A stretch of 64,000 bases of DNA, taken from IMG/VR virus record IMGVR_UViG_3300034683_000333; one strand, 5' to 3'. Numbering within the stretch: position 1 is the first letter of the stretch; each line of letters begins with the position of its first letter. The DNA is from a virus. Below are positions 6,778-50,730 of this stretch, piece after piece. Made by a program: the position numbers and the translations under genes. A model generated the notes under the pieces. That model was given only the letters and a program-made list of their open reading frames with translations. It made no database searches and was not told where the DNA came from.

Positions 6778-6788
6778 ATTTTTTATTT

Positions 6789-11700: not shown

Positions 11701-12498
11701 ATGTCTGACGGCTTAAAAATAAGTAAACTATATTCGCAAAGTATATATCAAGTGGAATCACCTTATTTACCGCCGAAGCAATAGTTTAGTAAATTAAATA
11801 TGAATGTTTTAGTGGATTTTTCTAGTGAGGTGACGCAACTACAATATTCAAAATTAAATATCAATGTTTTTTCAATCGTTGATGCATATATACCACCAGA
11901 ATCAACAACTGGTGGTGTTGAAATAACAAGGCTTTATGCGCAATCACTTTATAAGGTTGATACTCCTTAGTTGCCATTAAAGCAATGGTTCAGTAAATTA
12001 AATATGAACGCATTGATTAGCGATGGGGATGTAATCGAAGCTCGATACAGTAAAATTTACATGAATACTTTAAATGTTGTTGATCCATGGATTTCACCAT
12101 CGAGTGATCAAACCGGTGTAGAAATCAGTAAAATTTATTCTCAGGGGTTGTTTAGAGTCAGTGAACCATAGCACCCGATACCGATGTATTAGTCAAAATT
12201 AAATCTAAATGCAATGATAAGTAGTGTTATAGGTAATCAACAACAAAGATTTTCTAAATTGTACCAAAACGTAGCTATCACGAATGTAACAAGACCTGTT
12301 GAAATTAGGGCATCTAAAATGTATATAAATGTTCTTGTCATCACGGAACCATATTATTCAAATATTGAAAATGTTAGTGGTATAAAAACACCAGATTTAG
12401 ACTTGCAATACATATTTGACGGTTGTGGTGGTCTGGTATATAAAAAATTGGAAGACAAAATACTATTATACGAAAAAGAAATTCTGGAGATGAAATAA
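11701..12498 (+). CDS. Repeat-containing virion protein (265 aa; about 10 SK[LI]xxxx[LI] repeats), 3 TAG
   Basis: ATG 11701 is in frame with ORFs 11971 and 12214. Internal repeat KQ[TAG]FSKLNMN (11782) matches KQ[TGG]FSKLNMN (11986). Confidence 0.8.
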
Positions 12499-12953: not shown

Positions 12954-14012
12954 TTACGCTAATCTCTAACCATGTTCATCATTGTAATAATACAAGTTAA
13001 ATGAAGTGTTTGTGTTCTATAATAAATCTTCCTCTAGCCCCATAATCTTTTTGCCATTCCTTAAAATTGTAACCGGATTGGATTCAAAACTATCTGCCCC
13101 GTTGATGAATTCAATTTTTGTTCCGAATACCGGATTAGGTTCAAGTGTTATATTGAAAGATCCGTTTGTACTGTTTACAAAACACACATCGTTTCCTTGA
13201 ACGGTGGTTGCCGAAGTTATATCTAGAAATCTTATTGGTGTTGATATTTCTGTTTGATCAATAAATGTAATACCAGTTTCATCTTGAGATACAACTAGAA
13301 CTTTACCTGCATTATTTGTATATGTAGTTGGTGTGTCATTCAAATCAATAAAGGTTGCGATAAGTTCTGAATCAGGTACCGTCTATGTACCATCGACGTG
13401 TTTTGTGATACTTGTTAGATCGTCGTTAACGTCGTACTAATAGTTTGTTGTGCACGTTACATCATTTACAATTGCAATTGTTTGAGTAAGATTGTTTGAA
13501 CTATCGTAAATATATGTAATGTCCTGAAGTACAGTTCCATCACTTAGAATCTGGGCACTCGTTAAATCTCCCAGTGGAGAATAGTGATACTGAGTAGTGC
13601 GTTCGTCAATTTGAAAATCGAAAGCCCGTACATAGTTCACAACAAAATCTGTTTCTCCTAAGACCTGATAGGGTCCAACGGATACGGGAACGGTCGTTTG
13701 ATCCCCACCACCACTTGATCCACCACTCACAATGCCGTGCTAGGTTGTTCCGTCGTCGATATAGAGTGTTCCAGACTGATCCCCGGAGGAGACAAAATAG
13801 GCACGTCCCAAAACACCGGGAGATGGACGATTATTAAGCGGACCGATTTCCACTTTGCCGATGAGCTAACCCGTGGTTCCGTCTGAAATGAAGAGTTCTT
13901 TGGTATCGAGTGAAAAGAACGGTTCTCCAGGATCGAGACGCAACAACTCGTTTGCCATCAATGCATCGTAGGTTGTTTTGTTTCCCCGTTTTAATTTTAA
14001 CGTTATGCTCAT
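12954..14012 (-). CDS. Tail-fibre-like protein (352 aa), several TAG
   Basis: ATG 14012 (MSITLKLKRGNKTTYD). The N-terminus is paralogous to 26242..27213; YIDDGTT[TAG]HGI aligns with WVDDGSQWLEI. Joins ORFs 13437 and 13017; ends HG[TAG]RLA-TAA. Confidence 0.8.
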
Positions 14013-26241: not shown

Positions 26242-27213
26242 TTAGATAGTTCCACAATCCAAAGTCTTCACATAAAGTCGGTTTCCGTTACCGGCATCGA
26301 AATCGATGGTAGAACCATCCACTTTAAGTTTAAGTCCTCCGTTTTCGACGATGAACGGATGTGCATCAGTTGTGAATGCAAGATTTAGTGGTGCACCGTT
26401 TCCACCGGAAAGTCCTTGTCCTGCAACGTCGCCGATGACAAGTTCACCGGAGACTACCTTGATCGTCGTGTTATCGGTTCGTGCACTGATGGTGGAGTCG
26501 GAAATACTAATTCCGTCACCTGCTACATAGGTGGGGCTTGTAATGGTGGAGAAGGAAACCCACGAAGTGGTTTCGGCGTCATAAGTGTATCCCTTGTCTT
26601 CATCTTGGACAAAAACGGCCCAGTTTGCAGACGGAGCAAAGAAATCCCAAGATGTTCCGTTCCATTGTGCAATCTTGGCATCTTGTCCAGCCCAGTCGCC
26701 GGTTGCACCCGAGCCAACGAGATAGCGATCACCGGAATTTGGTGTAAGAGCGGATGGATCGGTAACGATGTCGAGCACAGGGTCACGCCAAGATAAACCA
26801 GCAATGGCGTTGTCAATTTCATTTCTGATTTTTTGAGAACTCCAAGCTTTCGTGGATAGTGTTGTTGAATCGTCGATTTCTGTATGAATTGAAGTGTTAA
26901 TAACATGGTTTGTGAAGTCTGTTTCTATACTAGTAGATCCACCCGAAATTTCGAGCCATTGACTTCCGTCATCAACCCATGTATCACCCGTGGATGAATC
27001 GACAAAAATACGACCTTTGACACCAGGTGATGGACGATTAGTAAGTAGATCAACAATGGCACGCCCAACGAGATGTGCATTTGTGCCATCGCTGATGTAA
27101 ATTTCGTTTGTGTCGGTCGTGTATGCAAGTTCACCAATCAGGAGTGGCGTCGTGCTCATAACAGTATCTAGGGCTGATTTTGTTCCTCGTTTAATTTGAA
27201 TAGTTGTTGGCAT
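26242..27213 (-). CDS. Tail fibre/spike-like protein (323 aa)
   Basis: MPTTIQIKRGT...GELAYTTDT N-terminus, a DUF2793-like segment (GDRYLVG.GATGDWAGQD.KIA.W.G..W.F), ends LDCGTI-TAA. All of its Trp codons are TGG. Confidence 0.8.
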   Translation of the reverse strand: MPTTIQIKRGTKSALDTVMSTTPLLIGELAYTTDTNEIYISDGTNAHLVGRAIVDLLTNRPSPGVKGRIFVDSSTGDTWVDDGSQWLEISGGSTSIETDFTNHVINTSIHTEIDDSTTLSTKAWSSQKIRNEIDNAIAGLSWRDPVLDIVTDPSALTPNSGDRYLVGSGATGDWAGQDAKIAQWNGTSWDFFAPSANWAVFVQDEDKGYTYDAETTSWVSFSTITSPTYVAGDGISISDSTISARTDNTTIKVVSGELVIGDVAGQGLSGGNGAPLNLAFTTDAHPFIVENGGLKLKVDGSTIDFDAGNGNRLYVKTLDCGTI

Positions 27214-27378: not shown

Positions 27379-27530
27379 GTCAACTGCTCCCACTTAACTT
27401 CTGACGAAGTTTGAAGTGGGAGCTTGCGACTACCCAGTAGTACCAACGTGCTAAGCACTCCTACCTTCAATTGGTGTCGCATCAGGGCAGGTTGACGGCC
27501 ACCCAACCACCCAAGTCATGCTTGGATGGT
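27379..27530 (-). ncRNA. TnpB reRNA/omegaRNA (right-end derived)
   Basis: Structured region from the end of tnpB to the element's right end. The flanking ATCCCTCCATGTTTGAAG would serve as the guide. The 5' boundary is uncertain. Confidence 0.6.
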
Positions 27531-28637
27531 TTCTTCAACGATGTACTCAATTCCTTTTCGTTGAAGATTCATAGCACCCACTCGATCATCATTGGATTGG
27601 TAATGGCAATTTTTACAACAAAATGTATGTGTTTGTTTATTTCGATTGTCTTTTTCAGTATGTCCGCATTTTGGACAAGTTTGTGAAGTATATTTAGGAT
27701 CAACTGTAATGACTTTTGCTCGATGTTTTAAGGCTTTATATTCAATCTTTTGGCGTAAATCATAAAAAGCCCAAGACACCATGGTATATCGATCTTTCTT
27801 GCGGACTTTTTCTGTTGCTAGACGAATACCTGTTAAATCTTCTAAAACAAACAACGTGTTTGCTCCATATCGTTCAACGAGTGCCTTGCTAATGCAGTGG
27901 TTGACATCCTGCATCCAACGGTTTTCTCGTTGACCGATAGCTTTTAATCTTCTGCGAGCAGAAGGAGTTCGTTTCTGTTGCAACTGTTTACGCAATCGTT
28001 TATATTTTTCACGTTGATGTTTGATTCGTCGTCCATTCCAAAAGAATGTTTTTCCATTGGAATCATAGGTGGTGATGACAAAATTAACTCCAAAATCTAC
28101 TCCAACTACCTGATTGATACTTTTTAGATCACATTCTTCTATCTCTTTAGACATTGGAATATACAAAAACCATTTTCCGTGCTTGTACACAAGTTTCGCT
28201 GTGCCAAATGTCCAAGTACCATCAAAATATCCTTCAAATCCTTTAATTTCAAAAGGTACTTTGATTCGCCCTTCTAATGTGTTAACAGAAAACAAACCTT
28301 TATTTAAAGAATAATCTCGGTTGAAAACTAAGTCATATTGAGGTTTTTTAAAACATACCAATGTCCAAGAGTGACCATTGCTTTTTATGGTTCTATATTT
28401 AGCAATCACCGTTTTGATGACGGATTGAGCCATCTGTGAACGCAAACCAAATTGAGAACGTAAGTCTCTGTAAGTCATATTATGTAATTTAGCTTGCGTT
28501 AAAATTTTAGAGTGAAAAATAATTTCGGATACAAAATTACAGGCTTTTCGATAAGCATTCATAGTTTCTTTTAAAATAATTGCTTGTTCATTCGTAGGAT
28601 TTATTTTGATTTTAGCAGTTAGTGTTAAATTCATCAT
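27516..28637 (-). CDS. tnpB: TnpB RNA-guided endonuclease
   Basis: SD AAAGGAGG, RuvC motifs VGVDFG and VLEDL, Zn finger TSQTCPKCG...FCCKNC...NDDRVGAMNL. All Trp codons are TGG; ends TGA. Confidence 0.93.
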   Translation of the reverse strand: MMNLTLTAKIKINPTNEQAIILKETMNAYRKACNFVSEIIFHSKILTQAKLHNMTYRDLRSQFGLRSQMAQSVIKTVIAKYRTIKSNGHSWTLVCFKKPQYDLVFNRDYSLNKGLFSVNTLEGRIKVPFEIKGFEGYFDGTWTFGTAKLVYKHGKWFLYIPMSKEIEECDLKSINQVVGVDFGVNFVITTYDSNGKTFFWNGRRIKHQREKYKRLRKQLQQKRTPSARRRLKAIGQRENRWMQDVNHCISKALVERYGANTLFVLEDLTGIRLATEKVRKKDRYTMVSWAFYDLRQKIEYKALKHRAKVITVDPKYTSQTCPKCGHTEKDNRNKQTHTFCCKNCHYQSNDDRVGAMNLQRKGIEYIVEETIQA

Positions 28638-28762
28638 TACACCTCCTTTCACTAAAATATAGTATAACATAAAATTAGTGAAAAGTCAACTTTATGTAGA
28701 AAGGAAAGAAGGCGATTCCTCTCCAACTTTCGCTAACGCTTAGAAGTTGGAGTCTCCTCGCC

Positions 28763-29214: not shown

Positions 29215-30408
29215 ATGACATACGATCTTTAGATTCCAAAAAATTTTGATACGGAATTTATTGATTTACCTATTGAAAGAGTGTTTGTTGTGGAAGACGG
29301 TGCTCGTTTACCATTTGTTAATGTTATGGTTGATTAGTTTGTAATAATAGTTAATCAACCGGATGTCTTCGCAATGGCAATGGAGACGGGGTTCAATCTT
29401 GTTGGGTTGGATGTTGCAATGACGCTTCATGCGGAAATGGACCCAACACAATTGTTTGTACCGTACTGGTCATTTGATTGGTATATGGAAGATAGTACAG
29501 ATGTTAGTACTGGAAAAAGATTGTTTCAAACTTATATTGATGCTATTCAGCCTTATTATGAAATTTTGTACAATTTTACCCAAATAGATATGGGTAGGGT
29601 AGGGCTTAACCTTTAGATTAATATGTATGAAAATGATTTATAGCCCGCTTATATGGATTTATTGAATTATTGCCGTGGAATTCTGACAGCGCTTTCAAGA
29701 TATAAGGAAATATATTATATAGAATATGATGGTAACGATCCAGCGCTTGGCCCAATTCCAATAAACACGTGTACTTATCATACAAAAAATAACAATTTAT
29801 CAATAAGTGATCCTGGAAGTTGGTATGGTGATATGAATTGGAACATTTTCGATCCTTAGAGGTTTGAAACTTACTTGGAAGGGTTAGATGGGGTTTACAT
29901 TTATGATGTAAGTGTATCGGATTCAGATATTCAAGCTTCTCATGGAATTCCATATACAAATCTCGATAAAGATACATTGATTGTAAATTGGTCTTCTGAA
30001 GGTGTAACTGGAATTGAATTTCCATTTTCAATTCATAATCGAAAATAGGCAAACAATCTTATTCTGACGTTTTCAAATGTAGAAAAACCATCAAGTGTTA
30101 GTGGGTAGGACCTAGCATTTACAACAAGTAAAAAATATCTATTCAAGGGAGAAAAAGCTATTGGGCAATTTTGTCAAGCTTTTTCGTGGTTTTTTCTTCA
30201 ACCTATGATAACACATAAACTATAGAAGAAATATAGAGAATGGAATGGATATTCACTTACAAATGAAGATATGATTCTTTTTCCATCACCAATCAATACC
30301 AAATCAAAGTAGGATAATTTTATTAACTATTATAAAGAAAATTACGCATATGGACAATTTATGAAGTCTGGAATGGCTTCAATATAGAATAACATCTTTG
30401 ATGAGTAA
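29215..30408 (+). CDS. Hypothetical protein (397 aa), about 10 TAG
   Basis: SD GAGG before ATG 29215. One frame through ORFs 29374 and 29653 to TAA 30408. Confidence 0.75.
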
Positions 30409-34069: not shown

Positions 34070-35248
34070 TTAACAAACAAATCCAAAAGTTTCGTATTCG
34101 ATGTTGTTCTTTTTTAGAAATTCCTTTGCCTGTTCAAGCCGATACGTCTTTTTGAGAATCATGTTTTTAAGACAGTTAGCCACAATTTGTTCATCTCCAT
34201 TTTCGTAAGCCCCAAAGAGAACCGGGGAATATTCTTTGTAATCTTTCATCACAATTTCCGCAAATTCTTTCCTCGAATTAGTTGAATTACGTAAATCGTT
34301 AAGTAATTTATGAAGTTCATCAACCGTTGTGTTAAAATAGTTAACAAATCCCTGCCACAACGAAGTTACATAGTCTCGTATTGCTGTTTGATCGTTTGGT
34401 ATGTTATTCATCAAATCATCAATTTTTTCTTCGAGAACGAGACGAATAATGTCATTTTCCCGAATGCCACTTCCCGATATCAACCGATGCCGTTCAAAAT
34501 ACCAACTGGTTTTCAGCTTAACAAGTTGATCGGAATAAACCAAAATCCAACCTTCAACACCTTCCAAGGTTTTGCTCTGGTTTATCAAGTGATCCAAAGT
34601 CATGTTGTCGAATCGCCGTGCAACTGGGATATCGTACTTGGTAATGAGATTGGTTGCGTAGGGGTCGTTATAAATATCAAGGTATTCTCCAGTCGTCTCA
34701 TCCCTCATCTGAATGAGGGTAAGCGATGGTTTGTCATAATAGATGACGATCTGATTTCCCGGAGCACAATATTCAAAAATTGCCGCTTTTCCATCGGAAA
34801 TCGTTTGTTCAACGAATGCACGTACATTTGGGTTATTTTCGAAAATGATCTGTGCGTTTTTGGCCGGATCAGATTCAAATGAAAGTTTCGTTTTGGCTCG
34901 AATGTTTCCGTTCACAGGAACAAAGCGAATCATTGATCCATCGAGTTTTTCAACAACGTACAACAGGTTTTTATTTTTCAATTCATGATACTGGTAACCA
35001 TCGGTTTCATTGAGATTGAAAAATTTATGAAGATGTAAAAATCTAGAAAAACAATCCGATCCGTTTTCGACAAAAGTAAGTCCCCTCAATTCCTGTGCAT
35101 TGAAAATGGAAAAATCTTGGGGAGTCGCAAGCATATAGGAAAACTGATAGACCTTTTTGCCATCAATCAATTCTTCTTTTACCCGAAAGGAAGTAGAATT
35201 TTTAACAATTTCAAAACAAGTGTTGAGATCTGGTAAATAAAAAGACAT
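34070..35248 (-). CDS. T4 RnlA-like RNA ligase 1
   Basis: Motifs HKFFNLNE, EKLDGSMI (adenylation Lys), AIFE, EGVEGW and VKLKTSWYFERH. No TAG; ends TAA. Confidence 0.88.
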   Translation of the reverse strand: MSFYLPDLNTCFEIVKNSTSFRVKEELIDGKKVYQFSYMLATPQDFSIFNAQELRGLTFVENGSDCFSRFLHLHKFFNLNETDGYQYHELKNKNLLYVVEKLDGSMIRFVPVNGNIRAKTKLSFESDPAKNAQIIFENNPNVRAFVEQTISDGKAAIFEYCAPGNQIVIYYDKPSLTLIQMRDETTGEYLDIYNDPYATNLITKYDIPVARRFDNMTLDHLINQSKTLEGVEGWILVYSDQLVKLKTSWYFERHRLISGSGIRENDIIRLVLEEKIDDLMNNIPNDQTAIRDYVTSLWQGFVNYFNTTVDELHKLLNDLRNSTNSRKEFAEIVMKDYKEYSPVLFGAYENGDEQIVANCLKNMILKKTYRLEQAKEFLKKNNIEYETFGFVC

Positions 35249-35884: not shown

Positions 35885-36152
35885 TTAAGTACGAACACTA
35901 ACAAGAAGTGTTCCTCCTTTCGGAGTTATTTTGCCCATCCCCAATGTTAGACTGGCTTGTTTTGTATGTACCACTGTCCCTACCCCTCAGGACTGTTTAG
36001 GTACATGCGGCAGAGCATGGGACTTGAGCAGCATCCCATGGTGTCATGACCAGTCTAACGTAGCCCGATGGAAAGTTAATCTTTCCCATGGCTGAGGGTA
36101 GTCAACTAAGGCTTTTGCAAGCCTCCACCTCTATAGGTGGTGGGTAGTTGAC
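35885..36152 (-). ncRNA. Stand-alone IscB-type omegaRNA (iscB reduced to about 6 codons)
   Basis: Nearly identical to 520-776 from GTCAACTACCCACCAC to the SD AAAGGAGG, then TTG TTA GTG TTC GTA CTT (LLVFVL, like an IscB start), then unrelated phage sequence. Confidence 0.85.
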
Positions 36153-36523: not shown

Positions 36524-39500
36524 ATGCCTAAAACAAAATACGAACAAACCGAACCCAAAATGATCGATCCAGAAATTTCTGGTGCCGCTGAAATGATTGG
36601 TCAAAGTCTTGAAATGCTTTCAACCGCTGTTTCTAAATTTGAACGTGCGGGATCGGCGGTGGATGCATTTGCCACGAAACTTCGTTCGGTGAGTGAGGGA
36701 TTTTCAAATGCCTTGTCAACACTTAATAAGTTGGCAAGTGGTGGTGGAGGTGGCGGAACACCGTCGGGAGTTGGCGTTGGTACTCGACCTTTGCCGGGTG
36801 ATCCCACATCACTATTGCAACAAATCAGTCAAATGTGGGGTCAACCTTCCCCGTTAACGGGCCGTAGAATGGGTGCTGGTTCGATTTCAAAATTATTGTC
36901 AGAACAAGCCGGGTATTCACAAATGGATGTTCAACGTCTTATTAAAGAAGCTCAACGTGGAGAATATGGAGATGTTTTTAAGAGAAAATTAAACGAATAT
37001 GTTCACCAACCCAACTTGGAACGGATGCAGACAACGAACATGGCTCCGTCTTCCAACGTGGCACGTACATGGAGCGATGTTCAATACCTAAATCGAAAAC
37101 TTTCCGATTGGGTTGAAAAACAAACCCAGCGAATTGCTTCACTTCCAGGACCGGAACAACAACGACGGTCCATGGGGCCGACACCACAGACGCAACAACC
37201 ACCGTGGTATGCACCCACTCAGCCTCAACGTATTGCTTCCACGGCCCTTGTCCCGGTATCTCAAGTCGGGAAAACACCCCCACCACCCCCACCTTCTCCC
37301 GCAACTCCTCCACCGACGGGTGGTCCAAAGCAGTTGCCTGTCCCGACCAAACCCCAGGTTATTGTTATTGAACCTAAAGATATACCACGTAGGGGTGGGT
37401 TTGGTCCAACTGCTACTGGTGCCGGTGGCGGTTATTTACCACCTCCTGGTGGCCCTGGTGGTGGAGAGGGTAGAAACTGGCGAGATTGGGAACCACCCCC
37501 TGGTGGTGGAGATGATGGTGGTGAATCTGGTGGTAGTCGTGGCGGTGGTGGAAGGATGGATGATTTTCTAATGACATTTGAGATGATGAACCCATTTGCG
37601 CCGAGGAACTTGGCGTGGTTGGGAATGTTTTCCTTTTCTGGTCAACTCTAGCCTGCAACCATGGCCCTTAGTCAACCAACCATGATGGCTGGTCAACATT
37701 ACCAAAATGTCGTGGAAGGTCTCAAGCAATTTGGATCTTCTTTTTCCGGGCTTCCAAGGTTATCTGGTTTATTTCAACAAATTATTCAAACAGATGCCTT
37801 TGATCTTTATGAATCAATGCACCAAAGTTTTACTGTTTTGAAAAATGTGTATTCAAGTTCAACACGTGCAGAAAAGATTATGGGACAATCCATTCAGTTG
37901 GCCCGTTCAACTCCCCTTGAAGTACGAGATCTTTTGGGAATCTTTTCAACATTTTCGGTTAACCCCGAACTTCGTGGGATTTTAAGTAACAGGCAACAAA
38001 TGACTCAATTAGCAACGGGTGTTGCTGGTTTATCGTTCTTAGTTCCAGAACAGGGAACGGAAGGTGCTATTTTTGCCATTCGTGAAGCTTTGGCTGGACA
38101 ATACCGATCCATTAAACGCCGTTTTAATATTTCACCCGAAATTATTGCATCATCGGCTGGTATGACGCTTGGAGAACTCAAGGAAAAACCAGTTTCATTC
38201 CTCGAAGCACTTGATATATTTTTGAAACAAAACCTTGGTCAAAATACATTTACGGAACTTCAAGATACATTTACCAAACAGGTTGGAAATATTTATGACT
38301 CATTGATGGGTGGAATTTTCCGTGGTTTCAGGGAAACGAGTATATATTCAAACGTGACGATGTTTGCCAAGGAAACTAGTAATGTTGTGGATCGTTTGTT
38401 TAAATCAGACGTATTTGGTAATTTTTTTCAAAATTTCTCTCAAAGTATTAACACCAATTTTACTCGTGCTGTTGATGTTCTAAGAACGATTGATTTTGAT
38501 CGTGATCCACCGGAACAAATTCGTGAAAAAGCCCAAAATGCTTTTCAATATGCCTTTTCGAGTATCATTAAGGACACGATTCCAGCCGTTGATGCGTTGA
38601 AGGAAGTAGTAACGCCTATTGCAAGTAAGCTAAGTGATGCCATGATTTCAAGCATGAGTCGAACGGTTGGATCAATTTTTACTGGAATGATGGGTGCCGG
38701 TGTTAAACAAACCATTCTATTGGGAACCAGTGTTGCCAGTAAATTGGTTCCTGGAGAAACGCTTTCGGGTGCAGTCGAACAGATGGGAGAATCGTTTGGT
38801 ACGTTCGCAACGGAAAATCCGTTTTTAACGATTGGTGGACTTGCCGTTGCAAGCAAGGGAATCATGGGTCGTGTAAGGGGATTTCTCACAAGACCGGATG
38901 TTGCGGATGCCGGTGGGGTGCTAAATTACCTGAGTGCTAGGGCAACCCAAAGTCGTGGAATTGGATATTTGATGAGTCAATCCTTTTTGGGTTCACGGGC
39001 GGCGATCCCAACCTTCATGGCTCCGGCAATTCTTTACCAATTTTATCGAGATTATCAAAAAATTCAAGAAGCTACCAAAGCTCAACCAGTTGATTACGAA
39101 CAACAAGCCGATATTCTCCAATATATGGCGGCCCGTCCAGGAGCACCCATTTCTGATATCATGGATCAGATCAACGCTCTTGGAACCAACTTTGAAACCG
39201 AAAAAATCCGTTTCGGTTATGGTGATATTGCCACCCACTCACTTCTTGCCGGAAGTCTCGCTTAGGGTGCTTTGGGTCGTGTGACTCCCGATTGGGCACT
39301 ACAACGCATCGGAACTCTCCCACAGAACCGCTTTGTGAATGCGTTTCGTCGTCCAACCGCCTGGGCATTGGACCGATTGGCCTCCATGTCAACCCTTCGT
39401 CGTCAATTTTTGGGAGCGGCTGGAGTTGGATCAGCCGTTGGACTTGCCGGACTTATGATGGAAGGTGATATTGATGTTTCTAAAAGATTCATGGCAGATT

Positions 39501-42037
39501 ATCGCCAAGGTGTCGGTTTGGTTCACACACTTGGTAGTGGTCTTTCCATGTTGGGATTTATGACAGGTAATCCTTACGTTGGTTTGGCTGGAGTGGCCTT
39601 ATCTGTTGGTGGTGAGTTTGCTGTATCTAAGTATTACGAACATAAAACCGACGAATATAGAAAAACAATTAACAAACGAATTGAAGAAAACCGACAAATT
39701 GTTAACAAACAATTATCTTCTTATCTTAGTATATTGGATAAACAACCAGAAGAAATTGTAAAAACACTTTCTCAAGATACTGGTGAATTATCCAATGTTC
39801 TAGGACTTATTGATGTTATGGGTACGAATTGGTCACAGAAACGAGATGAGTATTTTTCAAAACTTGTTTCTTCTGGTGATATTGGTCAAGAACGGTCTCA
39901 AAAACTAAAAGGAGTGATTGCACGGAACATAAAGCGAATTTCGTCAAATGAAAAACAATATAAGGCTTTAATGGATGCAATTGGTAAGAGTAATGTGGAA
40001 AGAGTGAAGGATATTCTTAGTTTAACTTCAGAAGATGTCGGTGGAATTAGAAATGAACAACTATTTTTATCTGCTATTATGGCAGAAGCATTAAATCTTC
40101 AACAACAGTTGCAACCAACACTGGCGACGGATCTCATGTCAACGATTACTCAGTCACTTATCGAGCGAACGAGAGGAACTGCATTTGGTAATGTTTTAAG
40201 ACGAAATTATACGGGTGAAGTGCAACGTACACGAACCATATTTTCATTGGATAGACAACAAAGAAATCTCAATCAAATTAAAGAGTCTTTAGAGGATGTT
40301 TTTACTGCTTCTATAATGACTTCGATGCCAGAAATGAAGCTTGAAAAAGCGCAAAATTTGGCTTCAAAGGAAGTATCTCGTGTTTATGATCTGGATAAAG
40401 TTTCTGGTATCATGAACACATTGCGTCAATATGCTGTATCTGAAAGAAATTTTTATGAAAGTCAGGTATTTGGTCTTGATGAATTTGCTAAGTCGGAAAT
40501 AAACCGAAATGCTGGTCCACGAACAATTTTTCAAGAAGCTGACGAACGGGTAAAGGCGCTTCGTCAATTTGATCAACAATCTATTGGAAGATTGTTCTTA
40601 AGTAGAAGTGTTGATATGTTCGGACAACAAAGCGCTTTGCCGTGGATTGGTTATCAGTTTGCACAGAAAAATCCACAGATGATGAGTCCAGAACTTTTTA
40701 GAGAATTTTCAACAAGAACAACAGATTTGTACGGACAAATTTTTGAAAAACAAGTTTCACAGTATTGGAATGTTACCGCAACAGCAAGAACTTCCATCGG
40801 AGAACTATCAGAAGGTATAAACAAGTTCAAAAATGTTGCAACAGAAAGTCAACTAAACGAAAGCATTAAAAAATACAATAATGCTAAAAATGAGTTTATT
40901 GATAGTGTTGTAAAGCTTATGGATACACGTCCCATTGAAAGTGCAATTGATAAGAATACTCGGCTGTATGATATGGCACCAGAATCCATAACATCCCAAC
41001 AACTTGATCGTGAAAAAGTTATAGAAAAGATTACTAAAGAAGCTGGTACTTGGGATGTTAATAAAATGCGTGAATATCTAATGGGTGAAATGACACGTGG
41101 ATTGGCACCCGAAGAACGTGGTACCATGCTTGAACGTATTGATAAGGAAATTTTACCAAAATATGGCGAAACTTTAAAATTTAAAAACGTTTCATCAACC
41201 GTGGAAAATCTACGTTCGTTTATGCAGTCATCGACGGAAGAAATTACTCCAATGTTGGTACAATCCATGAATGCACAGCAGGTACAAAATGTTTATGCCA
41301 CGATGCAAAATTATTTGGAACAGGTATATGGTGGAATGGGAACATCCATGAATATTATGGGTATGATGGCTGGTGGTGTCCAACAAACCCTTGGGGGTGG
41401 TGGCGGTCTATTTGGTTATGTGGGAATGGGCGAAACGTTGCTTCCTGGACAAATAACCGTCGGGGGTGTTCGGGCCACCAACCCCTTTGTTCTATCCGAA
41501 CAGCGAAAACTCGAAGAGGAGTCCCAGATTTCATAGGAAGATCTCAATAAACTTCAGGGCCAGCGATCCGTGGTTCGAGAACAATGGACACAGCAAATGA
41601 GCAAGGTCCTGAACTTCATGGTGGAAAATCCAGAACAGGTTGATCCGGCCATGCTTAAGCAGGTTGCGGAATATCAAAAGATGGGTGTATCCATGGGATT
41701 TGGGATGAGTGGAGAACAACGGGCCATGCTTGCCCAGGTGCAACTCAACATGCTCTCCAGGCAAGGAGAAGTTGTGGGATCGTTTTTTGATGAGATGCAA
41801 TCGGGTCGTATGGGGCTTGCCAAGGACATTCTTTCCCTTGCAGGTCAATCGGGTCTCGATTTGGGCGAAATCGGTGGAAAATCTCCCATTGATGATCTCG
41901 TTCGAGCAAAAGACGGAATTGTTGGAGCACTTCAAGAGCTTAAGGAATCGCTTTCCAATGCGGCAAAGGACATCGGAGAATTGTTTGAAAATCTTGGTAC
42001 CACTCCCGGTAGCCGGGTGGAGGTTCCCAGTCCATGA
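36524..42037 (+). CDS. Tape measure protein (1,837 aa), 3 in-frame TAG
   Basis: ORFs 36524, 37661, 39272 and 41570 are in one frame, separated only by TAG at 37649, 39263 and 41534. Tape-measure-like segment (ARSTPLEVRDL...GAIFAIREALAGQY) and helical Gly/Ala-rich repeats; ends TGA overlapping the next ATG. Confidence 0.82.
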
Positions 42038-42957
42038 AACGAAAAATTATTCTATTTTGTTTGATGATCGTTTTCACTTGGGGAACGGTTTATTCCATGG
42101 GTTGGGTTGGGAATAATCCAACCCAACCTATTTCTGAACAAGAAGGTTCTGATGTAAAAGATGATTCGATGGAAAAGCCGGTTATTGATTCAGTATCCAC
42201 ACCACAAAAGATTTCCATCACGAAAGAGTGGTTGCAAACGATTAAAGATACATTTTTGGAACAACACGATGAAATGTTGGAAATTTTGAGTGAAAAATAC
42301 GGTATCGAAGATTACAAGAAAGCATCGCAATATAAGTTTCGTGTATGTGGTGCAAAATTTTACAATTGTTACGTAGAAAGTCGTTATAAGTATTTTGTTT
42401 CCTATGCAAAATACATTGAGAAATAGGGAAAATTTTATTTTAATTTAGATTATGATGAATTGGCTTTCAGGCTTATTTCATCTATTGCTTGGTGTGAATC
42501 TGGATTTAAAGCAAATTTGGTAAGCCCCGATGGTGGTTATGGAGCTTTTCAGGTTACTCCATCGGCGGTTGGAGATAAAACAATTGATGTTTCCCGACTT
42601 TTGAATCCAGATTATAATACTCAACAAGGAGTCTATATTCTTTATAAATTTTGGAAATCTTCATTTGATCTACTCCCACGAAGTCTTAAAGAATATGACG
42701 AAACGATTCGGTGGTAGATCACGTTACGTGGATATAACGGTGGATATAAATGGATTAAGAGAATTCTGGATCGGTGTGTGGAAGAAAATGACTATCAAGC
42801 TTTTATCGAGACTGTAGTTTCGGGTGATTTTTTGAATACAAGTAAGTGCAACGGTAGATTTTTATGTTACGAACGTGTCAATGTATCCTACCCAATCAAA
42901 ATATATATAACAGAAGACTGGTTACTTAAATTAAATATAACGATTGGGGGGTTTTAA
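42034..42957 (+). CDS. Lytic transglycosylase (SLT) with N-terminal signal/TM segment (307 aa), 2 TAG
   Basis: Joins ORFs 42034 and 42460. SLT motifs AWCESGF, GYGAFQV, YNTQQGVYIL and RW[TAG]ITLRGYNGG; ends TAA in a TAATG overlap. Confidence 0.82.
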
Positions 42958-43469
42958 TGGAAAGAACATATAGAAGGTCCACCCGTTTTTCTACATATAC
43001 ACATTTCGAAAAAGACGAACTTGAAGATATTATTGATGAAATAAAGAAAACGGGTGTAATTCCTAAAGGAAAATATATTTCTCCGCCACAAATCGAGCCC
43101 TTTTTAAAGGACTTGTACTTTAGATTACAAGATATGTACGAAGATGTGAGAAACGGGAACGTTGATGATTCGACGAAACGATAGTTTGACATGACATTTG
43201 ACCAAATGAAAGCCGATTTCATCAATTTAAGCCAACCTATTTAGTTACCACTTATCAAAAAATTCTAGATCGGAAATTCCTTCAGAGAATTACAACACAC
43301 CGTTATAATAAAAATAATGGAAATTTTAAATAATAATACATATAATAAGGATAAGGCGGCTATTACGTCGTGGATTTACGAAAATGTATACTGGGTCCTT
43401 TTGAAAAACCTCAAGGATGAAAAAGAATATGAACAAAAAATGCTTACTTTAATTGATTTTGAGGGATAA
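42957..43469 (+). CDS. Small protein resembling sigma70 region 2 (170 aa), 3 TAG
   Basis: ORF 42957 extends through three TAGs to TAA 43469. The C-terminal YNKDKAAITSWIYENVYWVLLKNLKDE resembles sigma region 2.3-2.4 (YDP.KG..F.TWA..II). Confidence 0.45.
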
Positions 43470-43473
43470 AAAA

Positions 43474-43887
43474 ATGGCTATGCAAATCGATACAGGATTT
43501 ATTCGTGGAACCATTTCTGATGTATATGAAACAATCAAGGGATTGGGTTATGAATTTGATATTGTGGTGCAGGAAGTGGATCTCAATACGGGAACAACCA
43601 CCGATTTTACGACAAAGGGTCTTTGGGTGAGTCACGATACGGTGACGATCAACGAACACGTGTCGTTGCAGGTGCAAAATTCGCCTACAGTTTACGTGAA
43701 ATTTGAAAACCTCATGGATGGAACAAATTACATTGTACCAAAATTTAATTAGCGTATTAAACGGATAGATGTTATTGATTTTGATCTTGATAGAACAGGT
43801 GAAGAAGTCGTTTACGAATCGAAAGTATATAGTATTCAATCCATCAACCGTGTATTTAATTTATGGATTCTTAGGTTGAAACTCTAA
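43474..43887 (+). CDS. Hypothetical protein, possibly head-tail joining (137 aa), 1 TAG
   Basis: SD GAGGG, ATG 43474, reads through TAG 43750 to TAA 43887. Confidence 0.65.
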
Positions 43888-43903
43888 TTTTGGGAGTTTT
43901 TTA

Positions 43904-44380
43904 ATGGATTTAACAAGTAGCCACCTAAACAATTTTTATACGTTTGCGATGTTGGAACCCGTCTATGGGTTTGGCGAGGGGGAGAGTCGTTTGACTTCGT
44001 TGGAGTTTTCTCCCACGTAGGATCTGGGTTGTGTCATGCCGTCTTTGCTCAGTCGGGAAATGTCTCATTTGATTATTAACGATTACGTGATGGAAGAACT
44101 TACTCGCACCACAATCATCAACGATATTTTGTCGAAACATGATTCAGTCGTCGTTTGGGATGGAACGAATATTCAAACCGATGATACTGGGATAACATTT
44201 ATAACAAATAGATTAAATTTTTATGATTATCTTCTTATACTAAACATAGATAATCCACTTATTGATAAAATCAATTTACAATTATCGGAAGATCTCATTC
44301 AAGAAAAGTATTTTGCGAATTTGGTGATTGATGAGGAATTTTTCAAGGTTTTTAGAATTTATACAAAAATGAAGATATGA
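43904..44380 (+). CDS. Hypothetical protein (158 aa), 1 TAG
   Basis: SD GGGAG, ATG 43904, in frame with ORF 44036, ends TGA. Confidence 0.7.
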
Positions 44381-44398
44381 TAATATATGGGGGTTTGA

Positions 44399-46141
44399 AT
44401 GGCAAAAAAAAGAAGATTTCGTAAACAAGATAGCCATCTTATTCAACCAAATAGCGAGATAGATGATAAGTATAAAGGTAAAGATCCAGAATAGTATAAA
44501 AAAGAAATCCAGAAATGTAACAACGGATTGGATGGAGCAAAGTATTTTATCAACAATTATATATATGTACCGAATAAAATTGAACAACGTATTATCGAAT
44601 CAAAACCTAATTGGTTTAAGCATCTCATATTTGAAGGCGATCGAATCAATTTAAAACTATATGGAAAACAAGAAGAATATCTTGAACACTTGTTTTCAAA
44701 CCGTTTGGTTGCTACATATAAAAGCCGCCAAACTGGTATTAGTACAATTACATAGGCTTATATATTGTGGTATGCCACATTCAATAGTAGTAAGGAAGTT
44801 GTTATTGTGTCCAAATCAGAGACGGAGGCCATTAAATTTCTTGAAACGATTTATTATATGTATAATCATCTTCCGTTCTTTTTGCGGCGTCCCTATTCCA
44901 AGGCCGTCACCAAATCGTTTTGGTTGGGGGATCGAAACAGTGCAACGAAAATCAACGTTCTCACCTCCACCGCCAAATCCGGTCGTAGTTTTTCAGCGAC
45001 AATTCTTGTCCTTGATGAATGTGAGTTTATTGACTATGCCGATACGCTTTGGGGAGCTGCCCAGCCCACATTGTCCGCCACGGGTGGTCAGGGTATTTTG
45101 ATTTCCACACCCTGGATGTATAATTCGTGGTTTTGGGGTGTATGTAATCCCACCGATCCCGAAAATCATCCATTCGACGTTTTCAAAATTCACTGGAGCG
45201 ATATTCCCGGTCGTGATAAGGACTGGTACGAAGAACAGTGCAAGGAATTGAACTGGGATCAAATGAAAATCAAAACGGAATTGGATATGCAATGGATCAT
45301 TCCTTACACACTATATTTCAACGAAGAACACTTAAATGATAAATATATTGTTGATAAGAAAAGTGTGTATAAATACGATAAACAATAGAACTTATACATT
45401 CTTCATGAATATAACCCAAATGAAACATATTATTTTGGAATTGATACATATGAACAGGGTAATGATTTTAATGCTGGAACTATAATTGATTCAACGGGAA
45501 GAGTATATGCGTTTTTTAAAACTAAGCGAATTGATATAAGGGAATTGATTATTCATCTTTGCGAAAAATACCATGTATTGGCAAACGTAGAGCGCAATCG
45601 TGGTTTTTGGTTAATCAAGGAATTTATGGATAACGATATTGCTGAAAAGTATTTATTATATCAAGCGAAAAAGTGGAAAGGCATTGAACGCAAATATTTT
45701 GGATATGTAGTTAATGAAAATCGCCAAATGATCTTAAGTTATCTTTCATCCTGGCTGAAGGATGTAAATGTTTACAACGAAGTTGTTGATAAAAAGGAAT
45801 GGATTCTAATACCAGATGAATTGATGGAGGAAATGAAATACTTTGTAATTAAAAATCGACGCATTGAAGGTTTGAAACATGACGATGGTTTATTTTCACT
45901 TGGTGCCGCACAATTCGTGTTGAATAATCAAGATGTTTTTAAGAACATCGAAAAAGAACACGATGGAAAAACGGTTCCACCCGATGAATTTTATAAAAAC
46001 GTAAATGATCCAAAACGAAAACACCAACGAAAAATGTCCGTTGAAAATATGAAACGTCTCCTTTTGGGAAGCCGTGAGATGAGTCCATCGATGTCCGTTG
46101 AAGAGTTATTGGAGATGGAAAGGTTGCTCAATAAAAAATAA
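44399..46141 (+). CDS. terL: Terminase large subunit, T4 gp17-like (580 aa), 3 in-frame TAG
   Basis: KSRQTGIST (Walker A), GRSFSATILVLDECEF (Walker B), ILISTP and YFGIDT (RNase H). The ATPase and nuclease domains join only by reading through TAG at 44492, 44753 and 45386; ends TAA. Confidence 0.92.
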
Positions 46142-46144
46142 TAA

Positions 46145-46173
46145 AAAAACACCGGGGATCACCCGGTGTTTTT
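46145..46173. terminator. Bidirectional Rho-independent terminator
   Basis: AAAAACACCGG-loop-CCGGTGTTTTT between convergent genes. Confidence 0.85.
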
Positions 46174-46201
46174 AGTTTGATGTCTTTTGAACACCGTGTT
46201 T

Positions 46202-46669
46202 TTAACTGGATAGACTCTTAATCCAATCCATTTCTCCATCTGTATCCATATTTTTCGTTGTATCGTTTAGAAGTTTCTTCCATTTAATTAGGTATTCTTG
46301 AATCTTACAACTTGTTTCCAATAGTTTGAAAAGAATATCTTTACGATGTCCAATTAGGTTTACAATGGAATCGTTTAATTTCTTGGCCGTGTCAAAAACA
46401 GAAATGTCAATAGATTCCTCGATTTTTTCAATGTATGTTCGAATGTATTCAAGTTCATCAATCAGCATAATAAGACTATAATAAAGTAGGTTGTTTATTC
46501 TATTTGGCGAATGTTTCAGATCAATAGTTTCTGCTATATCTTGTAAAATACCATTTAATTCATCAATAGCTTCTTTAATACTGTCACGGACTGTATCTTT
46601 ATTTGGTTGTATAAGTTGTTTATTTATTTGTTCAAAATTATATGAATCTTTGTTAAATTCTAATCCCAT
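46202..46669 (-). CDS. Hypothetical helical protein (155 aa)
   Basis: SD GGAGTG before ATG 46669 (MGLEFNK), ends TAA. Confidence 0.7.
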   Translation of the reverse strand: MGLEFNKDSYNFEQINKQLIQPNKDTVRDSIKEAIDELNGILQDIAETIDLKHSPNRINNLLYYSLIMLIDELEYIRTYIEKIEESIDISVFDTAKKLNDSIVNLIGHRKDILFKLLETSCKIQEYLIKWKKLLNDTTKNMDTDGEMDWIKSLSS

Positions 46670-46692
46670 AATCTCACTCCTTAAGTTGAATT

Positions 46693-46722
46693 GGGGGAGA
46701 TGGCTTTTACACCATCTCCCCC
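46693..46722 (-). terminator. Strong hairpin after the capsid gene (terminator or processing site)
   Basis: GGGGGAGATGG...CCATCTCCCCC 11-bp stem with only a weak U tract. Confidence 0.55.
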
Positions 46723-46744
46723 CCAGATCAGTTAGGATCATTCA

Positions 46745-47896
46745 TCAGACGAAGACGACCTTACCGAGGGTGTTGGGAGTCACCACCTCGAAGGCATCGC
46801 AACGATAAATGATCCGATAGGTGTTGGCGTTCTTCTCGGTGATCGGAGGCGTGGTGCCCACGAGATAAGGAGCAAACACACCGGAGAACACTTCGTGTTC
46901 GGGATAGTTACAGGTCATGAGAACGCCGGGCATGAAGGGATCGTAGACGATCTCATAGGCCATGTTATACACACCGAGGAAAATACGACCGAGAGTGCCG
47001 GAAAATGGCGTGCCGCCGGGAACGATCTGGAGCTTTTCACGATCGAGGAGGGAGTAGGCATCGGGTCCCACAACGAGAACGTTGGGCTTCACGCCGTACT
47101 GACGGAAAATCTGAGCGGCAAGTTGTTCAATTACATCTCCAAATGTCTTCTTGTAGTATTCCAGCTTCACGGGATCGTTGCTAAAATCGGTGGGATTGAG
47201 TTCAAAATTTGCTGTGTTGACGGCGGGAACGTAGTTCCACAGTTCATTGATCACGTCGAATTCAGCCTCGTCCTTCAGCTTGCTGTAAATGGTGTTGGTG
47301 AGGCGTTCGTCAACGAAAGAATTGGCGTTTTCAAGGCCCATTACGGAGGCCAGGGCGATGATGGACTCAAGGGTCCATTCGGCATTGATTCGACGGATCT
47401 GGGTCGTTACGCTCTTGGAGCGAACGGAAGCCTTGATGCCACGGGCAACGGAGCTTTCGCCAACCATACCGTAGGTACGGGTGCGCTTTTCCCGAAGCAG
47501 GTCACCGGCAACCAGCGTGGTGTCGGAGGCACCGAGAGCGCCGGTCTCGGTGAAGGCGTCGGCATATTCCTAATCCACAAAGTAGATTACGGGATAAGGA
47601 GTTTCGGCCTTCTGCACGTTCACCACCTTGTCCACGATGGTGTTGATCCAGAACTTGGGAACCACAACGGAAAGTACATTGCTGAACACATCGATGTCGG
47701 ATGCGCTCATGCCACTTTCCATCGTCTTCTTCATGGTGATGAGCTTTTCGGAGTTTTCAAGCACGGACTTCACAACGGAGCGCTTGCTATAAGTGAGTGA
47801 ACTCCCGAGATTGTCCAGAATGGCATCAATACGATTGCGCTTTTCTTCTGGAATGGTGATGCGATTTAGAACTTCTAGGTTAGTCTGTAGCTTCAT
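46745..47896 (-). CDS. Major capsid protein, T4 gp23-like (383 aa), 1 in-frame TAG
   Basis: ORFs 47570..47896 and 46745..47467 are in one frame joined by TAG 47570 (YFVD[TAG]EYA). gp23-like order: VVNVQ...PVIYF, then SKSVTTQIRRINAEWTLE...DER...EINELW, then NVLVVGP...GIFAPY. C-rich third positions suggest high expression; ends TGA. Confidence 0.88.
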
Positions 47897-48012: not shown

Positions 48013-50730
48013 TTATTTAGACTTGATTAGCGTAACAATGTTATCAATTACGGTGTTTTTCTTATTGCTATTGTCTTCCATCACAACATTCTTGTTAATC
48101 TTAGCCGCATCTGCTGTAACCGTTTGGGTGTCGATGTCCATTTTTTCAAAAATGTCAGACACCACCAGCTTGTTCTTTCCGGCCATTTTTGCTAGCCATT
48201 TCTGAACAAGTTTCAACTGATCAGCGTTTTTGATTCCACTGATTTCGGTGAATACATCGTTGTCCAGCACTTCACGGAACCTGTAACAAAGTTCCATCTT
48301 CTTTTGCTCAAGTTCCATTTTGTCCATGAGCGCCTTGTGGTTGCTTTCCACTTCGTGGTATTTCGCCTCAAGGCTTTCCCGTTCTGACTTGATGGATTCC
48401 ATTGTCTTCTCAAGTTCTTCCTTTTCGCTCTTAAGTGATTTCATTGCGCTGCTAAGGGTTGATACTTGGTCACGTAACTTGCTAATTTCACCGTTCATCG
48501 TGTTGAAAATTTCAGAATTTTCCGTAGACTTAAACGCATCAACAGATTCTCCATTCACAATCTTCGCAACGTCTACTGCAAACTTATTGAGATGTTTTGC
48601 AAGAGTTACAAATCGATCCTCATTGAGTTCGATAATTGCATAATCCTCAATAAATGGATCGATGGTTTTAACGATAGAATCAAGGATAGAATACATTTCT
48701 TCATTGGTAATGTTTAGAGTTTCCTTGAAGTAATCACCATTGTCGATAAGTTTTTCAATCATCTTATCGTCAAGCTTAACGGAGATTTTGTCGGTTTCAT
48801 AGAAAACTTCCGCAAACTTGACGCTTTCACCCATCTTCATGAGATTTTCGGGTGCTTCCAGTTCCAGTTCCTCGTAATGGCGAAGGAGATGTTGGGCGGC
48901 GGCCTGCTTTTCTTCACCGGTTGCCACCACACCACCTCGTGCGCCACTTAGGGCCTGGGAGGCGGCGAGGAGTCCCTGCTTGCTCACAGATACGGAAACA
49001 ACATCATCTTCGACGCTCACCGCATGGTGGGGAAGCTTCCATTCCTCGGCCTTTTCGTAGCCACGAACGATTCCGAAAACCTCGTCAACGAGTGCCTTGA
49101 AATCTTCTTCTTCGAGAAGTGCATCTTCCTTGACCTTTAGAACCATGGAGCGGACTTCATCGCCATTCCACTTTTCTTCGTTCAACTCATCCGTCTTATT
49201 CATCAAGGAAGCATCGGCCACTTCCTGCTTTCCATCATCACCGGCATCACTATCATCATCCTGGGGTTCATCGTCGGTCTTCATTTCGGGCTTATCGGAA
49301 CTATCCTTGAGTTCGTTCCAAAGACACACAAAATATTCCTTTTCTTCGGCCATTGTGGAAAGATTCTGGTGAACCGCATCCAGAACTTCTTCCAGATCGC
49401 CTTCATCCACGGAATCGGCGATAATTGTTTTAAGTTCGTCTCCGTTGAGAACAAATCCGTTGTCAACAAGTTCTCCAAATTTTTCGTCTCCAAATAGCTG
49501 AACAATTGTCTTTAGTGCATCCATGTTAATTTCCTTGAGATATCCACCAACCCATTCTTCAACGGATTCCTTGGTTTCTTCCAGCGATTCAACAACCGCT
49601 GAAATAGATTCACGAATTTCGTCCGTTACTTTGTAGTCTTCCTTGATGTTTGCGGTCATCCATTCATCAATGTTGTCGGTGGTTAGTTCAACAATTTCAT
49701 CCATGTTGTCAAAAATCAACGCCAAATCATCAAGAACGTTGAACATGTAGTTCGCATCTTGTAGTTTTTCCTTGTTAATTTTCATGTCCAAATCCTTCCC
49801 CTTAAGTAAAAATTTTAATTCATCCAACGTTGTAGTTGGTTTAACATGCTCCTTGAGCAGTTTATCATTTACCTTCATTGCACAAAGCGCAACGGGTGAT
49901 TTTACATCTATATATTCTTCGGAGATGTAGTTAAAAACCACATCATCTTTTGTAACATGTTTATTTGTGTTAATTGTATCTGTTACGTTTACACCAACAA
50001 TGTCATATTTTGTTGATTGACATAGAAAATCACCGGGATATGTTACGATATCAAATCCAAGTAGGCGAAGCACATCAATTTGAGAAACGTAATCGGAATC
50101 TACATCCCAAAAATCAAGGGATTCGAATACTTCCTTAAGATAGGTGATTCCATTGAAGTTATTTCTATGTGTCGGTCGATCATACTTTTGTATTCCAGCC
50201 ATGAATCCACGCTGTGAAATTCCTATTACCGGATCAACCGATCGCATGAAATAATCAATGAGTTGTTGTTTTACCAAAACAAAATCAAGAATGATTGCCG
50301 CATGTTTTCTTCCTTTAATATTTATATATTCAAGATTTGCATCAAGAATATATCCAGCGATATCCTCATAACGATTGTTTTCACCCATGTTAGGATCTTC
50401 AGAATCTTCCGTGGTAGGATGACTATCAAACATCATTCTGTAGTAATTTTGTTCATCTATTAGTTTCTTATATTTATGATAGGCTTCTTCAATGGCTTCG
50501 TTCGAATAGATTCTGTTTTTACTAATTTCGAGATTTCCAACTGTTCCAATACCACGCAAAACGATGTTGAAAAGCTTTCCTTGTTTATAGAGTTCGACAG
50601 CCTTTTTCCATTTACCGTCGTCTCGATTTGAAAATATATAAGAATCGACGGTGATGTTGGTATTTCCAAGCTTTAGTGGTTGAATATGTTTTGCGTTGTC
50701 AAAATAAGATAATTCTGCCATTTTTTGCAT
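48013..50730 (-). CDS. Prohead protease (gp21/S77-like) fused to an acidic coiled-coil scaffold (905 aa)
   Basis: N-terminal KNRIYSNE...FDSHP...IGISQRG...GFDIVTYPG, then long acidic and coiled-coil regions, directly upstream of the capsid gene. No TAG. Confidence 0.75.
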   Translation of the reverse strand: MQKMAELSYFDNAKHIQPLKLGNTNITVDSYIFSNRDDGKWKKAVELYKQGKLFNIVLRGIGTVGNLEISKNRIYSNEAIEEAYHKYKKLIDEQNYYRMMFDSHPTTEDSEDPNMGENNRYEDIAGYILDANLEYINIKGRKHAAIILDFVLVKQQLIDYFMRSVDPVIGISQRGFMAGIQKYDRPTHRNNFNGITYLKEVFESLDFWDVDSDYVSQIDVLRLLGFDIVTYPGDFLCQSTKYDIVGVNVTDTINTNKHVTKDDVVFNYISEEYIDVKSPVALCAMKVNDKLLKEHVKPTTTLDELKFLLKGKDLDMKINKEKLQDANYMFNVLDDLALIFDNMDEIVELTTDNIDEWMTANIKEDYKVTDEIRESISAVVESLEETKESVEEWVGGYLKEINMDALKTIVQLFGDEKFGELVDNGFVLNGDELKTIIADSVDEGDLEEVLDAVHQNLSTMAEEKEYFVCLWNELKDSSDKPEMKTDDEPQDDDSDAGDDGKQEVADASLMNKTDELNEEKWNGDEVRSMVLKVKEDALLEEEDFKALVDEVFGIVRGYEKAEEWKLPHHAVSVEDDVVSVSVSKQGLLAASQALSGARGGVVATGEEKQAAAQHLLRHYEELELEAPENLMKMGESVKFAEVFYETDKISVKLDDKMIEKLIDNGDYFKETLNITNEEMYSILDSIVKTIDPFIEDYAIIELNEDRFVTLAKHLNKFAVDVAKIVNGESVDAFKSTENSEIFNTMNGEISKLRDQVSTLSSAMKSLKSEKEELEKTMESIKSERESLEAKYHEVESNHKALMDKMELEQKKMELCYRFREVLDNDVFTEISGIKNADQLKLVQKWLAKMAGKNKLVVSDIFEKMDIDTQTVTADAAKINKNVVMEDNSNKKNTVIDNIVTLIKSK

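Follow-up and report, generated by a model that had tools for sequence, protein, structure and literature searches.

The segment from 36,524 to 47,896 of the virus record IMGVR_UViG_3300034683_000333 (IMG/VR) raises the question of why genes for the head, DNA packaging and tail of a phage contain in-frame amber (TAG) codons, and whether these codons act as a gate on late genes. The DNA analysed, which is referred to as the window, is a stretch of 64,000 nt from one genome, in which the residue at TAG was assigned by sequence comparison. An earlier reading made without database searches (the sequence-only reading) had counted one TAG in the gene of the major capsid protein (MCP), three in that of the large terminase subunit (TerL), three in that of a tape measure protein and two in that of a lytic transglycosylase, and every one of these counts and coordinates was reproduced. 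As judged from the alignments, TAG is a Trp codon in this phage and not a Gln codon. The four genes depend on its decoding, and their TAG codons are no more frequent than expected by chance and show no sign of placement as a switch.

Under the standard code, the segment is split into many open reading frames (ORFs), which become nine ORFs once TAG is read through. Throughout the window, about 130 in-frame TAG codons are found against 279 TGG codons, where TAG makes up about 32% of the Trp codons and occurs in 29 of the 46 ORFs (63%). Of these ORFs, 45 have their 3′ end inside the window and terminate with TAA or TGA, never with TAG; the 46th is a partial IscB ORF that crosses the window edge. 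TAG is aligned with Trp, and TAA and TGA are still stops, as in NCBI table 32. The window also shows traits of the kind used by Borges et al. (10.1101/2021.08.26.457843) for recoded phages, namely in-frame stops in intact conserved genes, a recoded codon that is never a terminator, and a TAG-free subset of genes.

The residue at TAG was determined mainly with a 3916-aa DUF2341/LamG/Kelch protein that contains 42 TAG codons. A 1200-aa piece of this protein was searched against 1.8 billion representatives, and the 146 non-identical matches were aligned. At seven well-aligned TAG sites, the columns are 78–99% Trp among the approximately 146 distant homologs; Trp is present in 168/172 homologs at site 208, 170/176 at site 1435, 129/131 at site 1751, 40/51 at site 2111, 107/137 at site 2349, 185/195 at site 2417, and 121/122 at site 3426. 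When the TAG sites of the protein are averaged, 35% of the aligned residues are Trp and 2% are Gln, and the Trp share is above 75% at 7 sites. The modal-residue likelihood, calibrated on the same alignments, was best for Trp and was lower by 8.7 nats for Tyr and by 10.8 nats for Gln. A cross-entropy likelihood on the column frequencies did not separate Trp from Tyr, but this modal-residue likelihood and the interchange of TAG and TGG in DNA did.

The relatives of MCP and TerL were compared in the same respect. No MCP relative was found in IMG/VR or in the GTDB genomes, and the JGI metagenomes yielded only four short MCP contigs (L001–L004). The window TAG at MCP codon 109 is TGG in L001–L003, the TGG of another window column is TAG in two of these contigs, and at a third column L004 has TAG where L002 has TGG. 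In 12 relatives, codon 109 corresponds to Trp in 10/12 and to Phe in 2/12. Among the database MCPs, four fragments stop exactly before a Trp column, one begins right after such a column, and two full-length proteins carry a Gln on a Trp column. TerL relatives also carry a Gln at invariant-Trp columns, and site 330 of the window TerL is Tyr, Trp or Phe in them. Within one gene, two repeat copies read KQ[TAG]FSKLNMN and KQ[TGG]FSKLNMN. The region at 11701–12498 (+) encodes an internal repeat of about 68 aa in three copies, and one column is TAG, TGG or TAT depending on the copy.

The MCP gene (46745–47896, − strand; 383 aa), whose only TAG lies at 47570–47572, matches the Pfam family Gp23 (PF07068) with an E-value of 1.6e-13 and 51.3 bits against a gathering cutoff of 24.4. 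Its GC content is 0.52 and its GC content at third codon positions (GC3) is 0.64, compared with a window mean GC of about 0.36, which represents a strong codon bias of the capsid gene.

TerL is of the T4 type (44399–46141, + strand; 580 aa) and has TAG at 44492, 44753 and 45386 (codons 32, 119 and 330). It matches Pfam Terminase_6N and the PHROG terminase large subunit (E-value 8e-25) as well as T4 gp17 in the PDB (E-value 3.5e-9), and its identity to the terminases of cultured phages is about 24% at most; a blastn search of the TerL-to-MCP region against cultured phages returned no match. The P-loop KSRQTGIST (residues 107–115), the Walker B motif LVLDE (203–207) and the nuclease-type motif FGID (346–349) are present, and the TAG at 45386, which had been said to separate the ATPase from the nuclease, sits just before the first nuclease strand. 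In the P-loop (44717–44743), Ile occupies the position of the Walker A Lys166 of T4 gp17 and a Lys precedes the motif, as in the deviant P-loops of some terminases.

The lytic transglycosylase with an SLT domain (42034–42957, + strand; 307 aa, with an N-terminal signal-anchor) has TAG at 42424–42426 and 42715–42717 (codons 131 and 228), and its start overlaps the stop of the upstream 1837-aa ORF (ATGA). Residues 144–244 match PF01464 (E-value 3.1e-9; 36.8 bits against a cutoff of 21.3), with the catalytic Glu155-Ser156, the motifs GAFQV and YNGG, and a hydrophobic segment at residues 4–25. The earlier label of a lysis-related gene is unproven, because no holin or spanin candidate was found beside the gene.

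The putative tape measure gene is the 1837-aa ORF itself (36524–42037, + strand), which runs in a single frame with TAG at 37649–37651, 39263–39265 and 41534–41536 (codons 376, 914 and 1671). It has no Pfam or PHROG match, and hence no family-level homology to tape measure proteins. The homologs P0178–P0180 (1525–2391 aa) align across site 376, where they have Phe, Gln or Tyr, and are collinear past site 914. The ORF is considered to be one gene because its homologs cross the first TAG and stay collinear beyond the second. The protein has a Gly/Pro/Gln-rich N-terminus and Gly-rich hydrophobic segments. The name tape measure has no family support and is based on length, composition and position.

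None of the four genes contains an in-frame TAA or TGA, and all of them end with TAA or TGA. Together with the motifs of TerL and SLT, this agrees with the earlier statement that the genes are otherwise intact and keep their catalytic motifs. In a standard-code cell with release factor 1 (RF1), translation would stop after residue 108 of the 383 in MCP, short of the Gp23 core; after residue 31 in TerL, ahead of the P-loop; after residue 130 in SLT, ahead of the catalytic Glu155; and after residue 375 of the 1837 in the tape-measure-like protein. Because each of the four proteins is truncated at its first TAG, virions require the decoding of UAG as Trp. These truncation points show that MCP, TerL, SLT and the tape-measure-like protein depend on UAG decoding for their full length, which bears out the earlier claim that no virions form until UAG readthrough is active.

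The dependence does not by itself distinguish a gate from codon usage across the genome, and the distribution of TAG was therefore compared between the four focal genes and the rest of the window. At a TAG share of 32% among the Trp codons, MCP would carry one or more TAGs by chance with a probability of 0.79, and TerL, SLT and the tape-measure-like gene with probabilities of 0.98–1.00. TAG accounts for 2/10 Trp codons in SLT, 1/4 in MCP, 3/18 in TerL and 3/17 in the tape-measure-like gene, all below the 32% mean in this single genome, and for 9/49 (18%) in the four genes together, compared with 34% elsewhere (Fisher p = 0.033). The genes above the mean are fibre-like: 6/6 at 12954–14012, 12/17 at 4924–6792, 10/17 at 29215–30408, and 42/99 in the 3916-aa protein. 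The TAG share drops with rising GC3 (rho = −0.38, p = 0.023), TAG positions are even along the genes (Kolmogorov–Smirnov p = 0.69), and the +4 base after TAG does not differ from that after TGG (p = 0.45). Two probable virion genes are free of TAG, namely a 905-aa ORF that is a probable prohead protease-scaffold (0/8) and a fibre gene with Mtd_N and DUF2793 domains (0/9). The sequence-only reading had proposed as a check that the conservation of the TAG positions be examined in relatives, and in MCP and TerL relatives these positions are found to toggle with TGG. The MCP relatives have TAG at six different Trp columns, and the MCP of L001 has none. The TerL relatives have inferred TAGs where the window has TGG and sense codons at window site 330. 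One or more TAGs appear to be retained in about 11/12 MCP relatives and in 3/3 full-length TerL relatives.

A different tendency is observed in the enzyme and mobile genes. The genes of IscB, ARH, TnpB, Rnl1, a primase-like protein and UDG have 0 TAG among 19 Trp codons (p ≈ 0.0007), where ARH and UDG were counted as TAG-free because their in-frame TAGs lie upstream of better start codons. The GC3 of these six genes is similar to that of the rest of the window, and recent import is thus not an obvious explanation of their lack of TAG. The value of 0/19 is in keeping with early genes that a standard-code cell could translate. Recoded phages with standard-code hosts have 26–71% of their ORFs recoded, compared with about 90% in phages that share the code of their host (10.1101/2021.08.26.457843); the 63% of TAG-bearing ORFs in the window is inside the former range and below the latter value.

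Considering these results, we favour, with a probability of roughly 0.6, the reading in which the four genes depend on UAG decoding as a by-product of code and expression timing rather than through a gate installed in those genes. The window would belong to a large tailed phage, rich in AT, that uses TAG as a second Trp codon, and the TAGs of the focal genes would be ordinary members of the codon set. A phage tRNA(CUA) and a phage tryptophanyl-tRNA synthetase (TrpRS) would supply the decoding. Genes needed before the switch, such as the enzymes and mobile elements, would be kept TAG-free by selection, and genes expressed after the switch would be free to exchange TGG for TAG as AT pressure acts on them. 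TAG would then remain scarce in the core genes with the highest expression or constraint and become frequent in the fibre and adhesin genes. Virion production is thereby conditional on the code change, with no sign that the TAGs in the four genes were selected for that end.

Several points weigh against the by-product reading. A suppressor tRNA, TrpRS, the host and the host code are not visible in the window, and the code mismatch with the host is assumed; no tRNA gene was found in the 64 kb by ARAGORN, and none by Rfam up to an E-value of 5. The expression timing was taken from gene function only, and a promoter scan gave a result at chance level. Within same-strand arrays, ARH is preceded by genes with 12 and 7 TAGs, and UDG is followed by genes that contain TAG. 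Because TAG-free and TAG-bearing genes share these arrays, the partition does not follow the transcription units cleanly. The comparative data give a Trp-like residue rather than a chemical identity. Finally, TAG is retained in almost every MCP and TerL relative, and selection may therefore act to keep one, although the sequences are few.

The most likely of the alternatives is a selected late-gene gate. In this case, TAGs would be kept so that the capsid, packaging, tail and muralytic proteins await UAG-to-Trp decoding, and the switch would time or license the virions. We regard this as possible but doubtful. A gate would account for the presence of TAG in all four focal genes and in the three small ORFs between them, for first TAGs that lie upstream of the catalytic or core domains, for TAG-free enzyme and mobile genes, for a recoded fraction like that of recoded phages with standard-code hosts, and for the TAG that most relatives appear to retain. 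However, the presence of TAG is at chance level and the focal genes are TAG-poor, the positions drift among relatives up to the complete absence of TAG in one MCP, and the probable protease-scaffold and one fibre gene escape. SLT, with 2/10, does not appear to be preferentially recoded, unlike the lysis genes of the published cases, and recoding is strongest in fibre-like genes, for which the benefit of a gate is not apparent. Of the earlier proposal of a late-gene gate, the dependence is retained and the TAG-free enzyme and mobile genes lend it some support, whereas the TAG evidence offered for it fails to tell a gate apart from codon usage across the genome. The corresponding picture, in which a natural amber-to-Trp code is an obligate licensing step, is put forward just as tentatively: the enzymes and mobile elements could be translated with the standard code of the host, the genes for capsid, terminase, tail and muralytic proteins would await a phage-borne tRNA(CUA) and TrpRS, and the switch would time the virions.

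It is improbable that the phage and its host share a code in which TAG is Trp, with no mismatch and no switch, so that TAG mirrors the codon usage of the host. Such a host would be compatible with a window that contains no tRNA and from which the host code is not evident, but TAG would not be expected to be absent from the 19 Trp codons of the enzyme and mobile genes, the fraction of 63% is below the approximately 90% of phages sharing the host code, and in the paper library searched no bacterium or phage was reported to read TAG as Trp. Reading of TAG as Gln (code 15), as in the known recoded gut phages, is very improbable. Database gene callers do put Gln at TAG in this phage and its relatives (P0001; P0014–P0016), but in the relatives this Gln sits on invariant Trp columns, TAG and TGG interchange in the DNA, and both the mean share and the likelihood of Gln at TAG sites are well below those of Trp. 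The splitting of these genes under the standard code could suggest pseudogenes, a defective genome, or an artefact of assembly or sequencing. These can be practically dismissed, in agreement with the sequence-only reading, which had argued against pseudogenisation, since every piece lies in one frame without another stop, TAG is spread over 29 ORFs and never terminates one, the MCP P0001 from other assemblies (3 contigs; 99.7% identical) has the same TAG, rendered as Gln, and differs in one other residue, and relatives from several other samples carry TAG at other Trp columns.

Two known systems outside recoded phages resemble the present one. In the plastid code of Balanophoraceae (NCBI table 32), TAG is Trp. 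The reassignment is the same, the plastid genome is also very AT-rich, and TGG changes to TAG by one G-to-A transition; however, the plastid is an organelle with a fixed code, with neither a mismatch between host and parasite nor a temporal switch. The second system consists of amber conditional-lethal mutants made in the laboratory from T4 or lambda and grown on suppressor hosts. They have in-frame UAG in head, tail and packaging genes and form virions only with a suppressor tRNA, as would be the case here, whereas the ambers of the window are natural, genome-wide and decoded as the wild-type residue, with a presumably phage-borne suppressor. The reference for the plastid code is Su et al. 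(2019), as cited in PMC6821328.

The closest published counterparts are the TAG-to-Gln code 15 phages (crAss-like, Lak, Garnet and Topaz, among others; 10.1101/2021.08.26.457843; Peters et al., PMC9523058). In these phages, as here, TAG occurs in structural, packaging and muralytic genes and is not a terminator, part of the genome is readable in the standard code, and the same late-gene hypothesis applies; the difference is that TAG in the window aligns with Trp and not with Gln. Preferential recoding of the muralytic gene, as published for crAss-like phages and for Agate, is not apparent here, where the fibre-like genes are preferentially recoded instead. The TGA-to-Trp code 4 phages Jade and Agate (10.1101/2021.08.26.457843) are alike in that a stop codon is captured for Trp and coexists with TGG. 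This coexistence allows TAG/(TAG+TGG) to be treated in the same way as TGA/(TGA+TGG) was. They are unlike the present phage in that the captured codon is UGA, read by RF2, rather than UAG, read by RF1, and in that they possess a code-change module of tRNA(UCA), TrpRS and RF1, while none of the code-change genes is present in this window. Among phages whose code differs from that of the host, only TAG-to-Gln and TGA-to-Trp are reported to have been seen, and the hypothesis that late genes wait for the code change has already been published for both (10.1101/2021.08.26.457843). The likeness to TAG-to-Gln recoded gut phages drawn in the sequence-only reading is therefore apt, and the new element is the amino acid, for which no report of TAG-to-Trp in phages or bacteria was found in the literature searched; the dependence of late genes is already known.

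The remaining features of the segment surround the focal genes. Three small ORFs of 170, 144 and 158 aa without assigned function and without a transmembrane segment lie at 42957–44380 (+) and contain 3, 1 and 1 TAG, respectively. A bidirectional terminator-like hairpin at 46145–46173, with a 12-bp stem and T runs on both strands, separates the convergent TerL and head-gene units. Downstream of MCP, a 179-aa ORF (46202–46741, −) is TAG-free with 3 TGG. Directly upstream of MCP, the TAG-free 905-aa ORF (48013–50730, −) has 8 TGG and is, as a lead only, a possible prohead protease fused to a scaffold; its neighbours in the Atlas belong to the Peptidase_S77, Peptidase_S78 and YonD_N families. The AlphaFold single-sequence model of its N-terminal 280 aa (pLDDT 32) was too poor to confirm a protease-scaffold and was not used. 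No match was obtained by tblastn for SLT and the 905-aa ORF, or by a PDB sequence search for SLT, two TAG-rich ORFs and the 905-aa ORF.

The 3916-aa protein (14027–25777, −) consists of at least nine modules of about 330 aa (DUF2341 with a LamG-like domain) and a Kelch-like C-terminus; the modules were found by phmmer and MAFFT, and self-BLAST gave no high-scoring segment pairs. Conservation is lower at the TAG than at the TGG sites of this protein, with a mean Trp share in homologs of 35% and 64%, respectively. In the public collections, P0001 is the phage MCP with Gln at the TAG site, and P0030, P0039, P0046 and P0065 are fragments of the giant protein, each of which ends right before a TAG, one of them exactly between two adjacent TAGs. 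These five entries are mis-annotated because the genes were called with codes 15 and 11.

Two fibre-like genes with an Mtd_N N-terminus show opposite Trp codons, one with 6 TAG and 0 TGG (12954–14012, −) and the other with 0 TAG and 9 TGG (26242–27213, −). The latter is the GC-richer Mtd_N/DUF2793 gene and adjoins a TAG-free TnpB gene (OrfB_IS605/Cas12f1-like TNB; 27516–28670, −), with which it may form an imported cassette. Two HEARO elements (IscB omega-RNA; 153–160 bits) are found at 1–776 (−) and 35926–36152 (−). Downstream of the first, a TAG-free RRXRR/IscB ORF extends past the window edge. The second shares 83% identity with the first over 258 nt, but no IscB ORF follows it, and it is therefore an orphan copy between the Rnl1-like ligase and tape-measure-like genes. 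The T4 Rnl1-like RNA ligase (34070–35248, −; PF09511 and T4_Rnl1_C) is TAG-free and may serve tRNA repair, a role that would be noteworthy in a phage relying on a tRNA of its own.

These results bear on the annotation and the biology of recoded phages. Gene callers limited to codes 4, 11 and 15 mistranslate or fragment genomes of this kind. The pair of TAG and TGG provides a clean two-codon system for the gate hypothesis; among its predictions in the window, enrichment in the core morphogenesis or lysis genes does not appear to hold, and TAG-free enzymes do. With TAG read as Trp, phages would have a third stop-codon capture beside the known TAG-to-Gln and TGA-to-Trp.

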